Below, piece after piece: positions 7,505 through 30,644 of a stretch of DNA of 42,624 nt. The stretch is taken from the UHGV virus genome UHGV-0204464. One strand, given 5' to 3'. Origin of the DNA: a virus. Below the pieces are notes generated by a model, which saw only the letters and a program-made list of their open reading frames with translations, was not told the DNA's origin and made no database searches. Every line of letters starts with the position of its first letter. Position 1 is the stretch's first letter. Made by a program: the position numbers and the translations under genes.

Positions 7505-8041
7505 TCAAACAACCCACCAGTTTGCCTGATTGGATACCAGCCTTGCAGTTTTTATGGAATTAATTATGCCATGCTCAAGAGCCTTGTTAGCATCCAAAAT
7601 GGTCGAGTCTGCTATCAGGGATGCCCACCTAATATGGGTTCCGATGTCGATATTGAACGTCTCAACGAAGCGATCAAGATCGTTATCGAGGCATTTCCCG
7701 TACTCTCTCAATCTGGCATGGTCGGCGGCTGGGGAGGCAAAGCACCATAATAGAGGATGTAACAGGAATCTTGATAATGGGTTTGCGAAACGTTCTGAGC
7801 CAGCCAGGAAAACGATATTAGCTATGGATTCAACATTGCTTATGTTGTGAGTTCTAACGGTAACAGGGAGTGACTTAAGAAAGTTATACGCAGTAAAGCC
7901 AGCGGCTGTTTCCCCTCCCTGACTTGATATATGGATATTTAATTCAGTTGCGCCTTGAGATAATGCGGTGAGACAGTGGTTCTGAAGTTGCCCAACAGTG
8001 GCAGTGTTAACGGGGCATAAGAAATGAATTGTGTGCAGCAT
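7505..8041 (-). CDS. ClpP-like (S14 family) serine peptidase homologue, translationally coupled to mnt
   Basis: 178 aa; by-eye alignment to ClpP core (IHISSQGGETAAGF vs INSPGG.ITAG; candidate Ser in NVESIAN and His in LLHPL); ATG overlaps the mnt stop (TAATG). Confidence 0.5.
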   Translation of the reverse strand: MLHTIHFLCPVNTATVGQLQNHCLTALSQGATELNIHISSQGGETAAGFTAYNFLKSLPVTVRTHNISNVESIANIVFLAGSERFANPLSRFLLHPLLWCFASPAADHARLREYGKCLDNDLDRFVETFNIDIGTHIRWASLIADSTILDANKALEHGIINSIKTARLVSNQANWWVV

Positions 8042-15543: not shown

Positions 15544-16167
15544 TTAGCCACGGTTAACCTCCTGCGGCGGTTCTGGTAGCGGCATCCAGAACAAGGCGTT
15601 CCCTAACCACGATAAAGTGCCGTCGCTCAACTCCACGTATTCCCCTTGTACCTGTCCTGCCATATACTCGCCGTGCTTTGAATAAATTAAAATCCAATCA
15701 TCTTGAGCGGGCATTCGCTCACTACAGCTTATCCAACCATCCGGAGTTACCGGATAGTTGCCGGGTTCTTTAATGTGCAAGCGAGGCTCACCATCTTTTG
15801 GTTCAGGCCACTGGCGCTCCATGTTGATCTTCAATTTATCTTCCATAGCAGCGGTAATTTCAGCATCGCTGATGCCAGCACGGCGCTGTGCATCCCACAA
15901 CAGGAAATGCATATCAGCCCACTCGCTGAGATCGTCTGGTTCGGCTGCGGCTTCCAGAGCCTCTTTTGAGAGGTGTTTCAGTGGACCAATGGGGCCAACG
16001 CAGCCAAATGTGGAGTCAGACCATTTGGCATGCTCGTGGCGAATCAGTTCGCGTTCCAGTGATGCCAGTGCAATTCGTGCCAGTTCCATTTGTTCGCCAC
16101 GAGTAAGCCCGTTTTCAAGCGGATTTTTAATGAACAATTCAATACGTTCTTTGGTAATAGTGGTCAT
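15544..16167 (-). CDS. Hypothetical protein, common lambdoid early-region family (possibly DUF550/DUF551-type)
   Basis: 207-aa ORF with AGGA RBS; family assignment from memory only. Confidence 0.55.
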   Translation of the reverse strand: MTTITKERIELFIKNPLENGLTRGEQMELARIALASLERELIRHEHAKWSDSTFGCVGPIGPLKHLSKEALEAAAEPDDLSEWADMHFLLWDAQRRAGISDAEITAAMEDKLKINMERQWPEPKDGEPRLHIKEPGNYPVTPDGWISCSERMPAQDDWILIYSKHGEYMAGQVQGEYVELSDGTLSWLGNALFWMPLPEPPQEVNRG

Positions 16168-21664: not shown

Positions 21665-22246
21665 ATGAACAACTCATGGTGGCAGGAACTAATGCATTTT
21701 TTCCTGCAAGGAATGACACTTAAACAGTTGATTCATATGCTAATCATCCTGATCATATTGATTATTGTTATGCCGGTAAGCGTAAAAGAATGGATAAACC
21801 TGCATAATCCAGAAATCCTTCCTCATTACTGGATGTATTACATCCTGTTGTTTTGCGTTAGCTATGTGCTTAACGGCGTTGTTAATTCCGCTTATCACGC
21901 TGTGACTGAAAGAATTGAGGTATTCGCTGCTCAGAAGCGCAAATCTAAAGAAGAAAAATATGTGCAAGATTTGTTTGATTCGTTAACTCTTGGAGAAAGA
22001 GCGTATTTGGCATTCGCTGTAGCCGCTAATAACCAGCTACAAACGGAAAAGGGCGCTCATGAATCAATTTCATTGCTCAAAAAAGGACTCCTCGTTCGAA
22101 GGCCTCCTGCTGTTGGATATCCTGATACCGACCGTTTCGTTATCCCTGAAAGCTATAGACATGAGTGCTACATTAGGTTTGCCGGGAAGGCAGACAGCCT
22201 TATGGATGAACTTATCGCTCAGGATAAGCATGGCAAAAACAAGTAA
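21665..22246 (+). CDS. sieB: Superinfection exclusion protein B (SieB)-like membrane protein
   Basis: 193 aa with N-terminal hydrophobic segments (LIHMLIILIILIIVMPV; YWMYYILLFCVSYVL); lambda/P22 SieB is about 192 aa. Confidence 0.6.
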   Translation: MNNSWWQELMHFFLQGMTLKQLIHMLIILIILIIVMPVSVKEWINLHNPEILPHYWMYYILLFCVSYVLNGVVNSAYHAVTERIEVFAAQKRKSKEEKYVQDLFDSLTLGERAYLAFAVAANNQLQTEKGAHESISLLKKGLLVRRPPAVGYPDTDRFVIPESYRHECYIRFAGKADSLMDELIAQDKHGKNK

Positions 22247-22262
22247 TTAGCAAATGAATTTA

Positions 22263-22535
22263 TCATCTCGCCGTCAGTTGTTTTGATTTCCGGTAGCCTG
22301 CCGCGTAAAGAGCTACGTTCGGAAGACAAGTTGAACCTTCATATTTTCTGGTCAACGTTGTCAGAGTTATCACTTCTGCTCTCATTGCTGGTTTGAGCTT
22401 GCATTGCAAGACCACTCGTGAAGGGGTTGGCCTGTGTAGCTTGTCGGAGCTGATCGCCTCCTGACTTTGCAGATTTGCGCGACGAGCTCTACGGCGAGAA
22501 GCTGCGGTGCCTTTAAATTCTGTTTTTCTGGACAT
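22263..22535 (-). CDS. N-like transcription antiterminator (P22 gp24 family)
   Basis: Arg-rich motif TAASRRRARRANLQSQ near N-terminus; C-terminus LPNVALYAAGYRKSKQLTAR resembles P22 gp24; internal ATG at 22535 chosen over the longer track ORF. Confidence 0.7.
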   Translation of the reverse strand: MSRKTEFKGTAASRRRARRANLQSQEAISSDKLHRPTPSRVVLQCKLKPAMRAEVITLTTLTRKYEGSTCLPNVALYAAGYRKSKQLTAR

Positions 22536-22631
22536 GGATTCCTCCCGAATAAACTTTGGCGATGCAATCTCGAAGCTCCTCCTGAGACGGTTGCTTCGGC
22601 ATTGCATCCCACAGCTTATGTGGTTGGGTGA

Positions 22632-22971: not shown

Positions 22972-23724
22972 TTATGCTGCAAGTCTCTTAACCCAAGTCT
23001 CTCTTTTGGAGAATGGTAGAACTTGGCTTGATTCATGGAAGAGTAAGGAGAGTTGTTGCATTTGATCACCAATTGCTTCGCTGTCTATAACAACAAATCT
23101 GTTGTTATACTCCTCACTTGAAGCTTTAAGATCAATTAGTTTCCCAAGCAATGAGTAAGCACTATTCCAGCTTCCTCCGTGTTTCACGCTTGATGTAAAA
23201 ACGTATTTAGGTATGTCGGTTTTTATTGTTACAGGGACGGTAATTTGATGTCCACTCAAGCCATATACGTTTTCACGAAGAGAAAGTGCGTCTCTAAGCT
23301 CTGTGTGATATAGATAATCAATAACCATACTTTCAAACTTTTCAGCTTGAACTGGCTGATACCAGTCTAACGACAAAGTTGATGCGAGTATACCAGCTCT
23401 AATTATGTTCGATGTAATCGCACCGACATCCTTTTCTGTTGCCCAAGCAATGATTTCTCCTCGAGCATTGAGTTCTGCGCCTTCTTTAAGCAGTAATTGT
23501 CGTATCTCATCAAGTCGTTTTTTGGTAAGCGAGATCCCTCTTGCCTCCATATTCATTAAGGCATCGCATCTGTCACTAACTAAATACCTACCATTGACTT
23601 CACGGATAAAGGCACCGACATGCTCTCCATCATCACAGTAAGTGAATGGACTGATAATTCTCAAGGTCTTGCCTATTGGATGGCATTCGAAACCTAGTTG
23701 TGAGATCACTGTTGAGCACATCAT
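22972..23724 (-). CDS. Hypothetical protein B of cI-linked cassette (unknown function)
   Basis: 250-aa ORF; ATG overlaps stop of upstream gene (ATGA); no TM segment and no motif I recognise; AT-rich. Confidence 0.6.
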   Translation of the reverse strand: MMCSTVISQLGFECHPIGKTLRIISPFTYCDDGEHVGAFIREVNGRYLVSDRCDALMNMEARGISLTKKRLDEIRQLLLKEGAELNARGEIIAWATEKDVGAITSNIIRAGILASTLSLDWYQPVQAEKFESMVIDYLYHTELRDALSLRENVYGLSGHQITVPVTIKTDIPKYVFTSSVKHGGSWNSAYSLLGKLIDLKASSEEYNNRFVVIDSEAIGDQMQQLSLLFHESSQVLPFSKRETWVKRLAA

Positions 23725-24278
23725 ATTCCAAACCCCATTTGCCCCGACTCATCTTCAAGCGGTAAAGGTATTCTCCCAGAGTAAGTTATGTTCAGATGTT
23801 TACAGAAGTAATTCCAATACCCTACCAGGTCATCTGGGTTTATGTCATCTTCGATTGGAAACGCTATTCTATCACTATAGTATCCAGCTTCTTCATAGTA
23901 TACATGGTAGTGAGCACCGTAAATGATATCTTGGTACTTCGGATGATCGACCTTGTAACTATTCGTGTGTTTGTCAAAGTGATAGGTATCTACCGCGAAA
24001 ACCCTCTTGTTATGATAGAAAGCAATAATATTTATTTTAGGGTAAGAAATCGGGTCATCAGGTTCTGAATCCTGATCTGGTTTCCATTTCAGTTCAAACT
24101 TTAGCCCTTGTATAGGTATACAATCCTCATCCAAGGGGATGATATGGGCTTGTAGCCACATATCAGAGCGACTTGGTTTCTGTTTCCATTTAACGCCAGA
24201 AAAGTTAACTATTTTTTTACAATAAAGTACTTTATCAACTTCTACTTGGCTTGGCTGATAATCATCTATTTTTGCCAA
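23721..24278 (-). CDS. Hypothetical protein A of cI-linked cassette (unknown function)
   Basis: 185-aa ORF beginning 39 nt after the cI stop; first in-frame codon is TTG with GGCGG upstream (next ATG is 39 codons in); Tyr/His/acidic-rich; AT-rich. Confidence 0.55.
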   Translation of the reverse strand: MAKIDDYQPSQVEVDKVLYCKKIVNFSGVKWKQKPSRSDMWLQAHIIPLDEDCIPIQGLKFELKWKPDQDSEPDDPISYPKINIIAFYHNKRVFAVDTYHFDKHTNSYKVDHPKYQDIIYGAHYHVYYEEAGYYSDRIAFPIEDDINPDDLVGYWNYFCKHLNITYSGRIPLPLEDESGQMGFGI

Positions 24279-24317: not shown

Positions 24318-24977
24318 TCACCCAAACGTCTCTTCAGGCCATTGGCTGGCGATAACTTTCCCCACAACGGAACAACTCTCATTGCATGGGATCATTGGGT
24401 ATTGTGGGTTTAGTGGCTGTAGAAACACCTGACCGCTATCCCTGATCAGTTTCTTGAAGGTAAATTCATCACCACCAAGTCTGGCTATGCAGAAATCGCC
24501 GGGCTCAACAGCTTGCTCAGGGTCAACCAGAATTAACATCCCGTCAGGAAAGCTGGGTTTGGAACCTGTTGGTGCGGTCATTGAGTTACCTTCAACCTCA
24601 AGCCAGAATGCAGAGTCACTGGCTTTTTTGGTTGTGCTTACCAATCTCTCCGCATCGCCTTTGGTAAAGGTTCTGAGTTCTGGAGAGAACATCCCAGCCT
24701 GAACATGAGAAAAAACAGGGTACTCATATTGTTTTTTAACTGGGGCCGATGAGTATTCGCCAACAGGTGAAAATGTCCCGTCGTGGTTGAATGATATGTT
24801 ATCAATACCAAGGTATTTAAACACCACACCAATATCACTAAGAGATGGATGACGAGATCCGCGCAACCAGTGTCCAATCCCACCCTGCGTCATACCTAGC
24901 TCTTCGGCTAACTTCTCTTGAGTTATGCCGAGCTCTTTCATTCTGGATCTAGCCAGTTCATACCATTTCATTTTCAT
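24318..24977 (-). CDS. cI: CI-type prophage repressor (HTH plus LexA-like S24 peptidase domain)
   Basis: N-terminal HTH ([20 protein letters not shown]), C-terminal autocleavage-type domain ([17 protein letters not shown]); divergent from cro; start taken at MKMKWY. Confidence 0.8.
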
Positions 24978-25088
24978 GTCCTTATTATTACGCTCTGTAC
25001 TGGAACCATCCATGCACAATGTGTATTTTTACTTGTATTCGCAAAGTACATATTGTATTTTTTTATTCGTGTTTACTATGGAGGGCAT
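24978..25088. promoter_or_regulatory. OR/PR/PRM region between cI and cro
   Basis: Divergent intergenic region with AGTACATATTGTAT and TACTT..AAGTA partial palindromes related to the OL palindrome; TTGTAT-17-TATTTT promoter candidate; GGAGG RBS before cro. Confidence 0.4.
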
Positions 25089-27372: not shown

Positions 27373-27659
27373 CGGGCAAAGAGGCAATTATTCATTACCT
27401 GGGGACGCATAATAGCTTCTGTGCGCCGGACGTTGCCGCGCTAACAGGCGCAACAGTAACCAGCATAAATCAGGCCGCGGCTAAAATGGCACGGGCAGGT
27501 CTTCTGGTTATCGAAGGTAAGGTCTGGCGAACGGTGTATTACCGGTTTGCTACCAAGGAAGAACGGGAAGGAAAGATGAGCACGAACCTGATTTTTAAGG
27601 AGTGTCGCCAGAGTGCCACGATGAAACGGATATTGGCGGTATATGGAGTTAAAAGATGA
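27369..27659 (+). CDS. ren: Ren
   Basis: 96 aa matching lambda Ren (MTGKEAIIHYLGTHNSFCAPDVAALTG...). Confidence 0.9.
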   Translation: MTGKEAIIHYLGTHNSFCAPDVAALTGATVTSINQAAAKMARAGLLVIEGKVWRTVYYRFATKEEREGKMSTNLIFKECRQSATMKRILAVYGVKR

Positions 27660-27732
27660 CCATCTACATCACTGAGCTAATAACAGGCCTGCAGGTAATC
27701 GCAGGCCTTTTTATTTGGGGGAGAGGGAAGTC

Positions 27733-28173
27733 ATGAAAAAACTAACCTTTGAAATTCGATCTCCGGCACATCAGCAAAACGCTATTCACGCAGTACAGCA
27801 AATCCTTCCAGACCCAACCAAACCAATCGTAGTAACCATTCAGGAACGCAACCGCAGCTTAGACCAAAACAGGAAGCTATGGGCCTGCTTAGGTGACGTC
27901 TCTCGTCAGGTTGAATGGCATGGTCGCTGGCTGGATGCAGAAAGCTGGAAGTGTGTGTTTACCGCAGCATTAAAGCAGCAGGATGTTGTTCCTAACCTTG
28001 CCGGGAATGGCTTTGTGGTAATAGGCCAGTCAACCAGCAGGATGCGTGTAAGCGAATTTGCGGAGCTATTAGAGCTTATACAGGCATTCGGTACAGAGCG
28101 TGGCGTTAAGTGGTCAGACGAAGCGCGACTGGCTCTCGAATGGAAAGCGCGATGGGGAGATCGGGCTGCATGA
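27733..28173 (+). CDS. ninB: NinB (Orf) recombination mediator
   Basis: MKKLTFEIRSPAHQQNAIHAVQQILPDPTKPIVVTIQERNRSLDQNRKLWA... matches lambda NinB; start at internal ATG. Confidence 0.9.
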   Translation: MKKLTFEIRSPAHQQNAIHAVQQILPDPTKPIVVTIQERNRSLDQNRKLWACLGDVSRQVEWHGRWLDAESWKCVFTAALKQQDVVPNLAGNGFVVIGQSTSRMRVSEFAELLELIQAFGTERGVKWSDEARLALEWKARWGDRAA

Positions 28174-28697
28174 CTATCAAATCAAATACGCCAGCACACG
28201 ACAAGGACTGCTGGCAAACGCCGCTTTGGCTTTTTGATGCACTGGATATTGAGTTTGGATTCTGGCTGGATTCGGCAGCGAGCGACAAAAATGCTCTGTG
28301 CGCTCACTGGCTAACTGAGGACGACGACGCGCTCAATTCTGAGTGGGTAAGCCACGGTGCAATCTGGAATAACCCACCGTACAGCAATATCAGGCCGTGG
28401 GTGGAAAAAGCCGCTGAGCAGTGTATACAACAGCGACAGACGGTAGTGATGCTTGTGCCAGAGGATATGTCTGTCGGATGGTTCAGCAAGGCTCTGGAGA
28501 GTGTTGACGAAGTTCGCATCATCACTGATGGACGGATTAATTTTATCGAACCATCGACGGGGCTGGAGAAGAAGGGAAACAGCAAAGGTTCCATACTGCT
28601 GATTTGGCGACCGTTCATCAGTCCCCGGCGAATGTTTACTACCGTATCCAAAGCGGCATTGATGGCGATCGGGCAGGGCGTCAGGAGGGCGGAATGA
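28170..28697 (+). CDS. DNA N6-adenine methyltransferase (phage Dam-like, orphan)
   Basis: 175 aa from ATG overlapping ninB stop; NPPY motif (WNNPPYS); no adjacent restriction endonuclease gene. Confidence 0.7.
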
Positions 28698-28876
28698 GGC
28701 GACAGCAACGAAGTATCACCGACATAATCTGCGAAAACTGCAAATACCTTCCAACGAAACGCTCCAGAAATAAACGCAAGCCAATCCCAAAAGAATCTGA
28801 CGTAAAAACCTTCAACTACACGGCTCACCTGTGGGATATCCGGTGGCTTAGAGAACGCGCGAGGAAAACAAGGTGA
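28694..28876 (+). CDS. ninE: NinE
   Basis: [60 protein letters not shown] matches lambda NinE. Confidence 0.85.
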
Positions 28877-29043: not shown

Positions 29044-29248
29044 TTACCTGAAATGGTATCTCTGCCACCGCTGGCTAATTAAGTTTGCTGTAAAAGACTG
29101 GATGACAGCGGATGCCAACAAACTTAAGCAAAGAAAGGACTATTACTACGCCAGAATGAAGGAAAACTACTGCTCAATTCGCACTCGCATATTTATTAAA
29201 AAAGACCTTCAGTCAATTCTTCAATTGCGAGGGAAGGTAAATGGCTAA
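29036..29248 (+). CDS. Hypothetical nin-region protein
   Basis: 70-aa ORF with ATGA overlap to upstream gene. Confidence 0.45.
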   Translation: MSDYLKWYLCHRWLIKFAVKDWMTADANKLKQRKDYYYARMKENYCSIRTRIFIKKDLQSILQLRGKVNG

Positions 29249-29531
29249 CCTACGCAAAGAAGCGCGCGGCAGAGAATGCCAGGTACGTATTTACGGCGTA
29301 TGCAATGGAAATCCTGAAACTACAGTTCTGGCACATTACCGGATGGCTGGAATTTGTGGAACGGGGATGAAGCCTGACGACCTGATCGGTGCATGGGCTT
29401 GTAGTGACTGCCACGCGGAGATCGACCGACGCACAAGGATTCTCGACAACAAAGACGCCAGACTTTACCACCTCGAAGGCGTGATCAGGACGCAGGCGAT
29501 ACTGCTGAAGGAGGGGAAGATTAAGTCATGA
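29241..29531 (+). CDS. YbcO-like (DUF1364-type) Cys-rich protein
   Basis: 96 aa; ARGRECQVRIYGVCNGNPETTVLAHYR and CSDCHAEIDRR motifs resemble E. coli DLP12 YbcO from memory. Confidence 0.55.
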   Translation: MANLRKEARGRECQVRIYGVCNGNPETTVLAHYRMAGICGTGMKPDDLIGAWACSDCHAEIDRRTRILDNKDARLYHLEGVIRTQAILLKEGKIKS

Positions 29532-29890
29532 ACGAATATCAGTTTGTGCTTCCATACCCGCCGTCGGTGAACACCTACTGGCGAAGACGGGGAAGCCAAT
29601 ACTACATCAGCGATAAAGGAGAGAAATACCGAAAAGACGTTCAGCAAATCATCCGCCAACTCAAGTTAGACATTTTCACTAAATCACGACTCCGCATCAA
29701 AGTCATCGCAGACGTTCCAGACTCCCGCCGCCGCGACCTCGACAACATCCTGAAAGGTTTACTCGACTCCCTTATCCACGCCGGATTTGCGGAAGACGAC
29801 GAGCAATTCGATGACATTCGCGTAATTCGTGGCGTGAAAGTACCAGGCGGAAGGCTTGGAATAAAAATCACCGAACTGGAGAGCGTATGA
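29528..29890 (+). CDS. rusA: Holliday junction resolvase RusA
   Basis: 120 aa; LPYPPSVN..., DSRRRDLDNILKGLLD, GGRLGIKITEL motifs match RusA. Confidence 0.85.
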   Translation: MNEYQFVLPYPPSVNTYWRRRGSQYYISDKGEKYRKDVQQIIRQLKLDIFTKSRLRIKVIADVPDSRRRDLDNILKGLLDSLIHAGFAEDDEQFDDIRVIRGVKVPGGRLGIKITELESV

Positions 29891-30030
29891 ACAAAGCATT
29901 CGAACGATATATGCGCCAGCGTTATGGCAATCGCTACGATCTGACCCGCGATACTGGCGGTTTCTACTGCCGTGAGGTTGTGAAACGAATGTTTGAAGTG
30001 TGGTGTCATTGCAAAGGATGGGAGATCTGA
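29887..30030 (+). CDS. Hypothetical small protein (47 aa)
   Basis: ATG overlaps rusA stop; stop adjoins candidate Q start; not in the supplied track. Confidence 0.3.
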   Translation: MNKAFERYMRQRYGNRYDLTRDTGGFYCREVVKRMFEVWCHCKGWEI

Positions 30031-30644
30031 TGCGGTTAACTCCAGTATTCAGCATGGTTAACTTCATTAATGACGCGCACTTTCGCCGCGTATGGAGACA
30101 CCCGAAGAAAACCATCAACTCTAGCCAGAAAGCATGGGTTCATTACATGTTACAGGTATGGGGCAAGGTTAATGCCGGAGATTGCTCTCCAGGTGGTGCA
30201 ATTAACGTTATCGGTCGTCTGATGATTCGCAGTCAGTGGAGCGATGACAAGGCTAAGCAGATAGAGTCTGTCGTCATGCGCCTGTACGAAGAAGATGGGC
30301 TGCGCGGAGATGTGCTATACAAGAAAGCTCGCGAACTGGTCATTCCTCAATCATCGTTTAGCCACATCATCACTCTCGCCAAAGAATCAGATGATGCGGC
30401 TTTCGTTGAACGTGTGATGGTCAAGACTTTTCACCGTGAAAGCCCCGTCCGCGATGTAGCTATTAAGCGATATTGCAATCGCAATTGCACGCAAGATATA
30501 GCCAGGATGATTTCTTATATAACAGGTGCTGATATTCAATATTGTCGTAAGCGAGTGGTGTGGTGTGAGAAAGTGCTGGAGTCAGAAATGTTTTATGCAA
30601 TGAAACGAGAATTGGAGAAAGAATTTCCATTGATAGCGGCCTGA
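30030..30644 (+). CDS. Putative late-gene antiterminator (Q position)
   Basis: ORF between rusA and the PR'/tR'/lysis region; start ambiguous (30000 or 30030); no zinc-finger motif like lambda Q recognised. Confidence 0.5.
   Translation: MRLTPVFSMVNFINDAHFRRVWRHPKKTINSSQKAWVHYMLQVWGKVNAGDCSPGGAINVIGRLMIRSQWSDDKAKQIESVVMRLYEEDGLRGDVLYKKARELVIPQSSFSHIITLAKESDDAAFVERVMVKTFHRESPVRDVAIKRYCNRNCTQDIARMISYITGADIQYCRKRVVWCEKVLESEMFYAMKRELEKEFPLIAA

Follow-up and report, generated by a model that had tools for sequence, protein, structure and literature searches.

A phage Dam family gene between ninB and ninE in the nin region of a P22-like Escherichia coli phage

The stretch of DNA analysed here, referred to as the window, is the whole 42,624 nucleotides of the virus genome UHGV-0204464. 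Taken as a whole it is a P22-like (CUS-3 / E212-like) Escherichia coli phage with lambda-type O and P replication genes. No single record spans it among the E. coli genomes and phage records searched; the best matches cover 57% of a 20-kb probe in the former set and 61% of a 22.6-kb probe in the latter. Downstream of the replication genes, the order O, P, ren, terminator, ninB, dam, ninE, ninF, ybcO, rusA defines a nin region, and the gene considered here, dam, lies between ninB and ninE (Table 1).

Table 1. Features of the dam locus (positions are those of the window)
Feature	Position	Strand	Basis
Intrinsic terminator just upstream of ninB (presumed lambda tR2 equivalent)	27685..27716	+	terminator scan
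ninB (orf), recombination mediator	27733..28173	+	PF05772, 184 bits
Shine-Dalgarno-like GGGGAG, within the 3' end of ninB	28154..28159	+	direct reading of the sequence
dam, predicted 175-aa phage N6-adenine DNA methyltransferase	28170..28697	+	PF05869, TIGR01712
W15-Q16-T17-P18 codons, conserved N-terminal motif	28212..28223	+	T17 and P18 invariant in the 39-sequence alignment
F31-W-L33-D34-S-A-A-S38 codons, strand beta-1 and loop	28260..28283	+	F31, L33 and D34 invariant; strand 31-34 in the model
N68-P69-P70-Y71 (NPPY) codons, catalytic motif IV	28371..28382	+	sequence; invariant in the 9- and 39-sequence alignments
ninE	28694..28876	+	PF05322, 144 bits

The dam reading frame, which closes with a TGA at 28695-28697, is a strongly supported gene and not a chance ORF (Pfam E = 7e-65). 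Its ATG (28170-28172) overlaps the TGA of ninB (28171-28173) within the ATGA of gcATGAct (28170-28173), and its own TGA is overlapped in the same way by the ATG of ninE (28694-28696) within gaATGAgg (28694-28697); dam is translationally coupled to both neighbours. A GGAG stands 10 nt upstream of the dam ATG, in a Shine-Dalgarno-like element that is itself overlapped by a GATC (28159-28162). We also considered a longer, GTG-started frame (28110, 195 aa), which is disfavoured because full-length homologues measure about 175 aa and start at the same MT(I/L)KSNTP. A preliminary description, made from the sequence alone, had placed at this locus a 175-aa ORF with an NPPY motif and ATGA junctions at both ends, and each of these elements was recovered from the ORF list and the raw sequence.

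Comparison with lambda delimits the gene exactly. The ninB product is identical to lambda NinB at 145 of 146 residues (98.2% at the nucleotide level) and the ninE product to lambda NinE at 55 of 60 (96%), so that the earlier term "lambda-identical" is nearly right. Nucleotide homology to lambda (98.2%) spans 27389-28173, ends on the very last base of the ninB stop codon and restarts at 28701, seven bases into ninE. In lambda the slot between the two genes holds ninC (PAPS-reductase-like) and ninD, without any methyltransferase, in agreement with the preliminary description. Since the homology stops at 28173 and resumes at 28701, dam is a cassette alternative to ninC and ninD, exchanged for them exactly from one gene boundary to the other, which is the classic pattern of lambdoid mosaicism. 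The novelty implied by speaking of an insertion does not survive this comparison, as dam is one of the standard alternative mosaic modules of the slot, carried by the phages HK97, 434, mEp043, SfI, Sf6, VT2-Sakai and Phi24B and found in about 29% of the complete genomes of E. coli.

In the terminator upstream of ninB, 6 of the 8 base pairs of the stem are GC, and TTTTTATTT comes after it. This terminator falls inside the 98.2% lambda-identical block 27389-28173 and is presumably the equivalent of lambda tR2. With its position downstream of a tR2-type terminator, between the replication genes and the expected place of Q, its ATGA packing (a recognised property of nin regions) and its boundaries at gene ends, dam has the characters of a nin-region module. 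Given such a terminator upstream, its transcription should depend on N antitermination, as expected from the biology of lambda. Farther downstream, YbcO (a putative nuclease, PF07102) and RusA (a Holliday-junction resolvase) are encoded at 29241-29890 on the plus strand, where lambda has ninG/rap, and this pair is another alternative mosaic module of the nin region. A 214-aa ORF (30000-30644), without a Pfam match, occupies the position expected for Q.

The dam protein matches PF05869, "DNA N-6-adenine-methyltransferase (Dam)", with 218.3 bits for a cut-off of 28.1 (profile positions 1-167 of 169) and the equivalog TIGR01712, "phage N-6-adenine-methyltransferase", with 264.2 bits for a cut-off of 97.05 (positions 1-165 of 165). 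It also matches phrog_111, "DNA methyltransferase", and is classed by PADLOC as an orphan methyltransferase (oMTase). The gene is almost certainly a member of the PF05869/TIGR01712 phage Dam family, for which a profile search returned at least 8000 protein clusters at 90% identity. Its exact amino-acid sequence is present in NCBI on 70 contigs, as phage N-6-adenine-methyltransferase; a protein at least 95% identical is encoded in 244 phage records and a family member in 2162. At the nucleotide level, dam occurs at 95% identity or more, mostly intact, in 1566 of the 5426 complete E. coli genomes, and the ninB-dam-ninE context was found in all of the E. coli matches listed, under the PGAP name "phage N-6-adenine-methyltransferase".

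Among phages, a 1.4-kb block comprising ninB, dam, ninE and ninF is 96-98% identical in mEp043, HK140, SfI, 434 and Lahn3, as well as in mEp506, HK97, Sf6, Sf101 and many Stx1 and Stx2 phages. The product of VT2-Sakai orf32 (annotated "similar to DNA methylase", between nin146 and nin60) is identical to the dam protein at 172 of 174 residues (99%); the two that differ, D51 and I142 (A and M, respectively, in VT2-Sakai), lie in variable columns. The Phi24B gene has the same length, 528 bp, and its product shows 100% identity to the VT2-Sakai protein, while HK97 gp62 is identical at 170 of 174 positions (98%). Among the more remote relatives in the family are T1 gp20 (33% identity, E = 4e-27) and the Dam of Pasteurella phage F108, both annotated as similar to HP2 Dam, as well as proteins of T1-like coliphages, lactococcal 936-group phages and marine phages. 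A tblastn match named "PAPS reductase", gp20 of the Stx2-converting phage Stx2a_WGPS2 (NC_049941.1), was considered as a possible Dam-NinC fusion and rejected; RefSeq calls it "phosphoadenosine phosphosulfate reductase", it has no PAPS-reductase domain, and it is actually a PF05869 protein (156 bits) that looks misnamed.

We then examined residue conservation in an alignment of 39 family sequences that are 31-79% identical to the dam protein. All 16 invariant and all 9 near-invariant family columns are intact in it: T17, P18, F31, L33, D34, R122 and F125 (the last two within a GR..F near the C-terminus) belong to the invariant positions, and D13, W15, N41, E114 and G131 to the nearly invariant ones. 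The conserved positions L55, W59 and V93-M94-L95 are likewise all present. The NPPY, in the local sequence WNNPPYS, directly follows a strand (64-67) of the AlphaFold2 model. By analogy, W15-Q16-T17-P18 may correspond to motif X, which contacts the methionine moiety of AdoMet, and (F/Y)xLDxAA may be a non-canonical AdoMet-binding motif I that replaces FxGxG; in reading motifs X, I and IV, and a gamma-class order, in this way we follow the motifs of M.TaqI and the order of elements in the model. The assignment as an N6-adenine methyltransferase with an NPPY motif, made in the preliminary description, is thus upheld by the PF05869 and TIGR01712 matches and by the retention of every family-invariant residue. 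The AdoMet motif, whose loss on alignment had been named beforehand as evidence against the assignment, is intact for this family, although it is not of the textbook glycine-rich form, and its role in cofactor binding is a probable one.

The AlphaFold2 model of the protein (mean pLDDT 90.2, pTM 0.87) shows one compact alpha/beta domain. Its best fold match in the PDB is PCIF1, a cap-specific RNA m6Am methyltransferase, so that the closest solved fold is that of an RNA enzyme; the next structural neighbours are the DNA methyltransferases M.TaqI, M.BseCI, MmeI and HsdM. The top DNA methyltransferase fold matches are targets of 323-751 aa, and only with their catalytic cores does the protein align, over about 145 of its 175 residues, which leaves no room for a separate target-recognition domain, and the protein has the size expected of a single catalytic domain (about 140-240 aa, without such a domain). 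Searching the PDB by sequence, either with the protein alone or with the 39-sequence profile, returned no solved structure for the family; matches to SdiA and Med31 were discarded as not real, that to Med31 arising through a chance "CNPPYS". We think it unlikely that the protein is something other than a simple stand-alone GATC Dam, reading its target in a novel manner (by loops of the catalytic core, or by dimerisation) or acting on a second substrate such as RNA or single-stranded replication and recombination intermediates. A second substrate would fit both PCIF1 as the closest solved fold and the coupling to NinB, a single-stranded DNA-binding protein; we found no link between NinB and Dam in the literature on NinB/Orf and on the RAGNYA fold.

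The target of the enzyme is suggested by its relative in VT2-Sakai. The dam gene of a VT-2 phage was cloned by Radlinska and Bujnicki (Acta Microbiol Pol 2001;50:161-167) as M.EcoVT2Dam, and papers that cite this work state that the enzyme is active when cloned and that its target is GATC. Among all VT2-Sakai ORFs, orf32 is the only one with a (D/N/S)PP(Y/F/W/H) motif, from which we infer that it is the cloned M.EcoVT2Dam; orf4, considered as a second methyltransferase that might be the real M.EcoVT2Dam, is a DUF551 protein. The Phi24B dam gene is expressed in lysogen cultures, with a significant change on induction. By its near identity to these proteins, the dam allele of the window would be expected to share the GATC specificity. 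Judged from sequence and from these reported properties, we consider it to encode a known phage Dam family member that probably directs DNA adenine methylation to GATC, a reading to which we would give a probability of about 0.85.

A relaxed or non-GATC adenine methyltransferase, acting as a broad anti-restriction methylase in the manner of Hia5 and M.EcoGII, would account for a protein of 175 aa with nothing left for a recognition domain, and non-specific adenine methylases of phages and prophages do exist. We nevertheless regard it as quite improbable here. Specificity for GATC is reported, in the papers citing its cloning, for the 99% identical enzyme inferred to be the VT2-Sakai counterpart, and the PacBio methylomes of strains with two copies contain only GATC and CTGCAG in both, plus CRARCAG, which their authors ascribe to a separate Type IIG enzyme. 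Hia5, examined as a possible family member, was set aside as a larger Dam-related enzyme of a different family, with DPPY and FxGxG.

The PCIF1 match also raises the question of whether the physiological substrate could be RNA (rRNA, for example), perhaps with the help of a partner protein and with an effect on prophage induction, the more so as a "DNA adenine methyltransferase" of Stx prophages methylates 16S rRNA in complex with the product of a neighbouring gene. This is very unlikely for dam. The 16S rRNA enzyme belongs to another family (MT-A70), the remaining fold neighbours of dam are DNA methyltransferases, and the VT-2 phage enzyme is reported, again in citing papers, to methylate GATC in DNA. 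Moreover, the genes that flank members of the dam family differ completely across lambdoid, T1-like, HP1-like and lactococcal phages, which leaves no conserved partner. The "prophage rRNA methyltransferase" of Stx prophages was considered as the same gene as dam and ruled out, being the MT-A70 (DPPW) enzyme beside int.

That dam might be an inactive relic, hitch-hiking with the nin module, could be argued from the dispensability of nin-region genes for growth of lambda in the laboratory and from the Dam already supplied by the host, but we hold it to be highly improbable for a gene that is full length, has lost none of the residues invariant in the family, has a confidently predicted fold and is at least 95% identical in nucleotide sequence, and mostly intact, across 1566 genomes, and of which the VT-2 phage counterpart was active when cloned, according to the literature that cites it.

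With Pfam and PADLOC, neither a restriction nuclease nor a second methyltransferase was found in 20 accessory ORFs of the window, including those for SieB, N, Ead/Ea22, the dATP/dGTP pyrophosphohydrolase and the antirepressor. The orphan status put forward in the preliminary description, without a cognate endonuclease, therefore agrees with the ORFs scanned and with the PADLOC class; what lies beside the methyltransferase gene is ninB and ninE, and not the endonuclease gene that marks a Type II restriction-modification system. That dam is the methylase half of such a system, its endonuclease lying elsewhere in the element, can practically be dismissed: methyltransferases often occur in such pairs and nothing else speaks for it, while both neighbours are nin genes joined by ATGA overlaps, the ninB-dam-ninE context recurs in every E. 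coli genome among the matches listed, and the one other (D/N/S)PP(Y/F/W/H) match in the window falls in an antisense ORF inside a larger gene, which we do not count as real. A partner that cuts GATC would kill only dam- cells, and none is known for the PF05869/TIGR01712 family.

Several other genes of the window were noted in passing. A SieB superinfection-exclusion homologue (21665-22246, plus strand; PF14163, E = 2.5e-22) adjoins the N gene. Between N (22263-22607) and the gene for a cI-like repressor (24318-25019), on the N side of the latter, two ORFs of 250 and 185 aa on the minus strand (22972-24278) encode a DUF1828 protein and a protein with a weak DUF6978 match; in PADLOC they match component B (E = 5e-10) and component A (E = 5e-4) of PDC-M24, a candidate defence system made up of these two, and are possibly a prophage-encoded anti-phage pair. 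In a 207-aa early-left protein (15544-16167, minus strand), a dATP/dGTP pyrophosphohydrolase domain (PF04447) occurs together with DUF551. Lastly, a Clp-protease domain (PF00574, E = 2e-11) is matched by an ORF of 178 aa (7505-8041, minus strand), which has the DNA-ejection genes on one side and the antirepressor gene on the other and lies on the strand opposite to theirs.

As a GATC-directed enzyme, dam might serve the phage in the following way. With N antitermination active, its synthesis would presumably be delayed-early, in lytic growth or upon induction, and yield a single-domain, AdoMet-dependent DNA N6-adenine methyltransferase of 175 aa that would act on the A of GATC. It would raise the GATC methylation of fast-replicating phage DNA, which host Dam leaves only about half methylated, and progeny genomes would then bear a host-like Dam mark. 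The virion DNA of lambda, P22 and L is indeed only partly methylated by host Dam, as replication outruns the enzyme. Because the host is already Dam+, any benefit of a phage dam must be quantitative; it could consist in protection from MboI/DpnII-type enzymes, whose substrate is unmethylated GATC, in the next host, in avoiding MutH-directed cutting during Red/Orf-promoted recombination, or in correct Dam-dependent regulation. Stable lysogeny of 933W, as cited in another paper, requires host Dam. GATC is rare in the window, with 93 sites and an observed/expected ratio of 0.47, and among 4-bp palindromes only CTAG has a lower one. The anti-restriction or regulatory role first proposed for dam is plausible, while the specific "top-up" benefit outlined here is a tentative suggestion that we would rate a little below even odds. 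The role of phage Dam enzymes was described in 2020 by Radlinska's group as "still not well understood". GATC is not evenly distributed along the window: the immunity/replication region (22.4-26.9 kb) has about 4.9 sites per kb, the late genes (31-41 kb) about 1.5.

Compared with known systems, dam stands apart from the canonical Dam enzymes. E. coli Dam and T4 Dam are alpha-class proteins of another family (PF02086), and the features that E. coli Dam, T4 Dam and DpnM have in common (PF02086, FxGxG, DPPY and a recognition domain) are missing from the dam protein, which has NPPY in place of DPPY, no FxGxG loop and no target-recognition domain, is about 100 residues shorter and had no PF02086 match in the Pfam scan. 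The target presumably shared with E. coli Dam and T4 Dam is a case of convergence. The label "Dam-like" used in the preliminary description consequently applies to function, given the GATC target reported for the 99% identical VT2-Sakai counterpart, and not to family homology, in view of the missing PF02086 match, the gamma-like motif order and the lack of a recognition domain.

PCIF1/CAPAM and M.TaqI are 14-17% identical to the dam protein and 2-3 times larger, with extra substrate-recognition domains, and the substrate of PCIF1 is capped mRNA. The MT-A70 methyltransferase of Stx phages (M.EcoPA8orf6770P / M.EcoGV type) resembles dam in being small, in its presence in lambdoid Stx phages and in its annotation as a GATC methylase. 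It differs in having DPPW, in adjoining int, in needing the partner PNB-2 and in preferring 16S rRNA, whereas the dam protein carries NPPY and had no MT-A70 (PF05063) match in Pfam.

Within the PF05869 family, T1 Dam (gp20), the Dam proteins of Haemophilus phages HP1 and HP2 and F108 Dam share with the protein of the window the W-x-T-P, (F/Y)xLDxAA, NPPY and GR..F motifs but are only 33-38% identical to it, and the T1-type proteins carry, unlike it, an N-terminal extension of about 50 aa and an insertion. Their genes also have other neighbours, a helicase and a VRR-NUC gene in the T1-like phage tunus, and rep, located upstream, in F108. T1 Dam has historically been described as a GATC methylase, as has HP1 Dam.

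By contrast, M.EcoVT2Dam (VT2-Sakai orf32), Phi24B Dam, HK97 gp62 and the "DNA adenine methyltransferase" of 434, mEp043 and SfI represent the same gene, with 175 aa and 98-99% identity, the same position between ninB and ninE, the same ATGA coupling and a reported specificity for GATC. From the VT2-Sakai protein, that of the window is separated by two conservative differences only (D51 for A and I142 for M), and its host element is a P22-like podovirus mosaic instead of an Stx phage or HK97. Published work and the routine annotation of genomes already cover the gene and its family, its place in the nin region and the reported GATC specificity, and dam is the standard "mini-Dam" of lambdoid phages.
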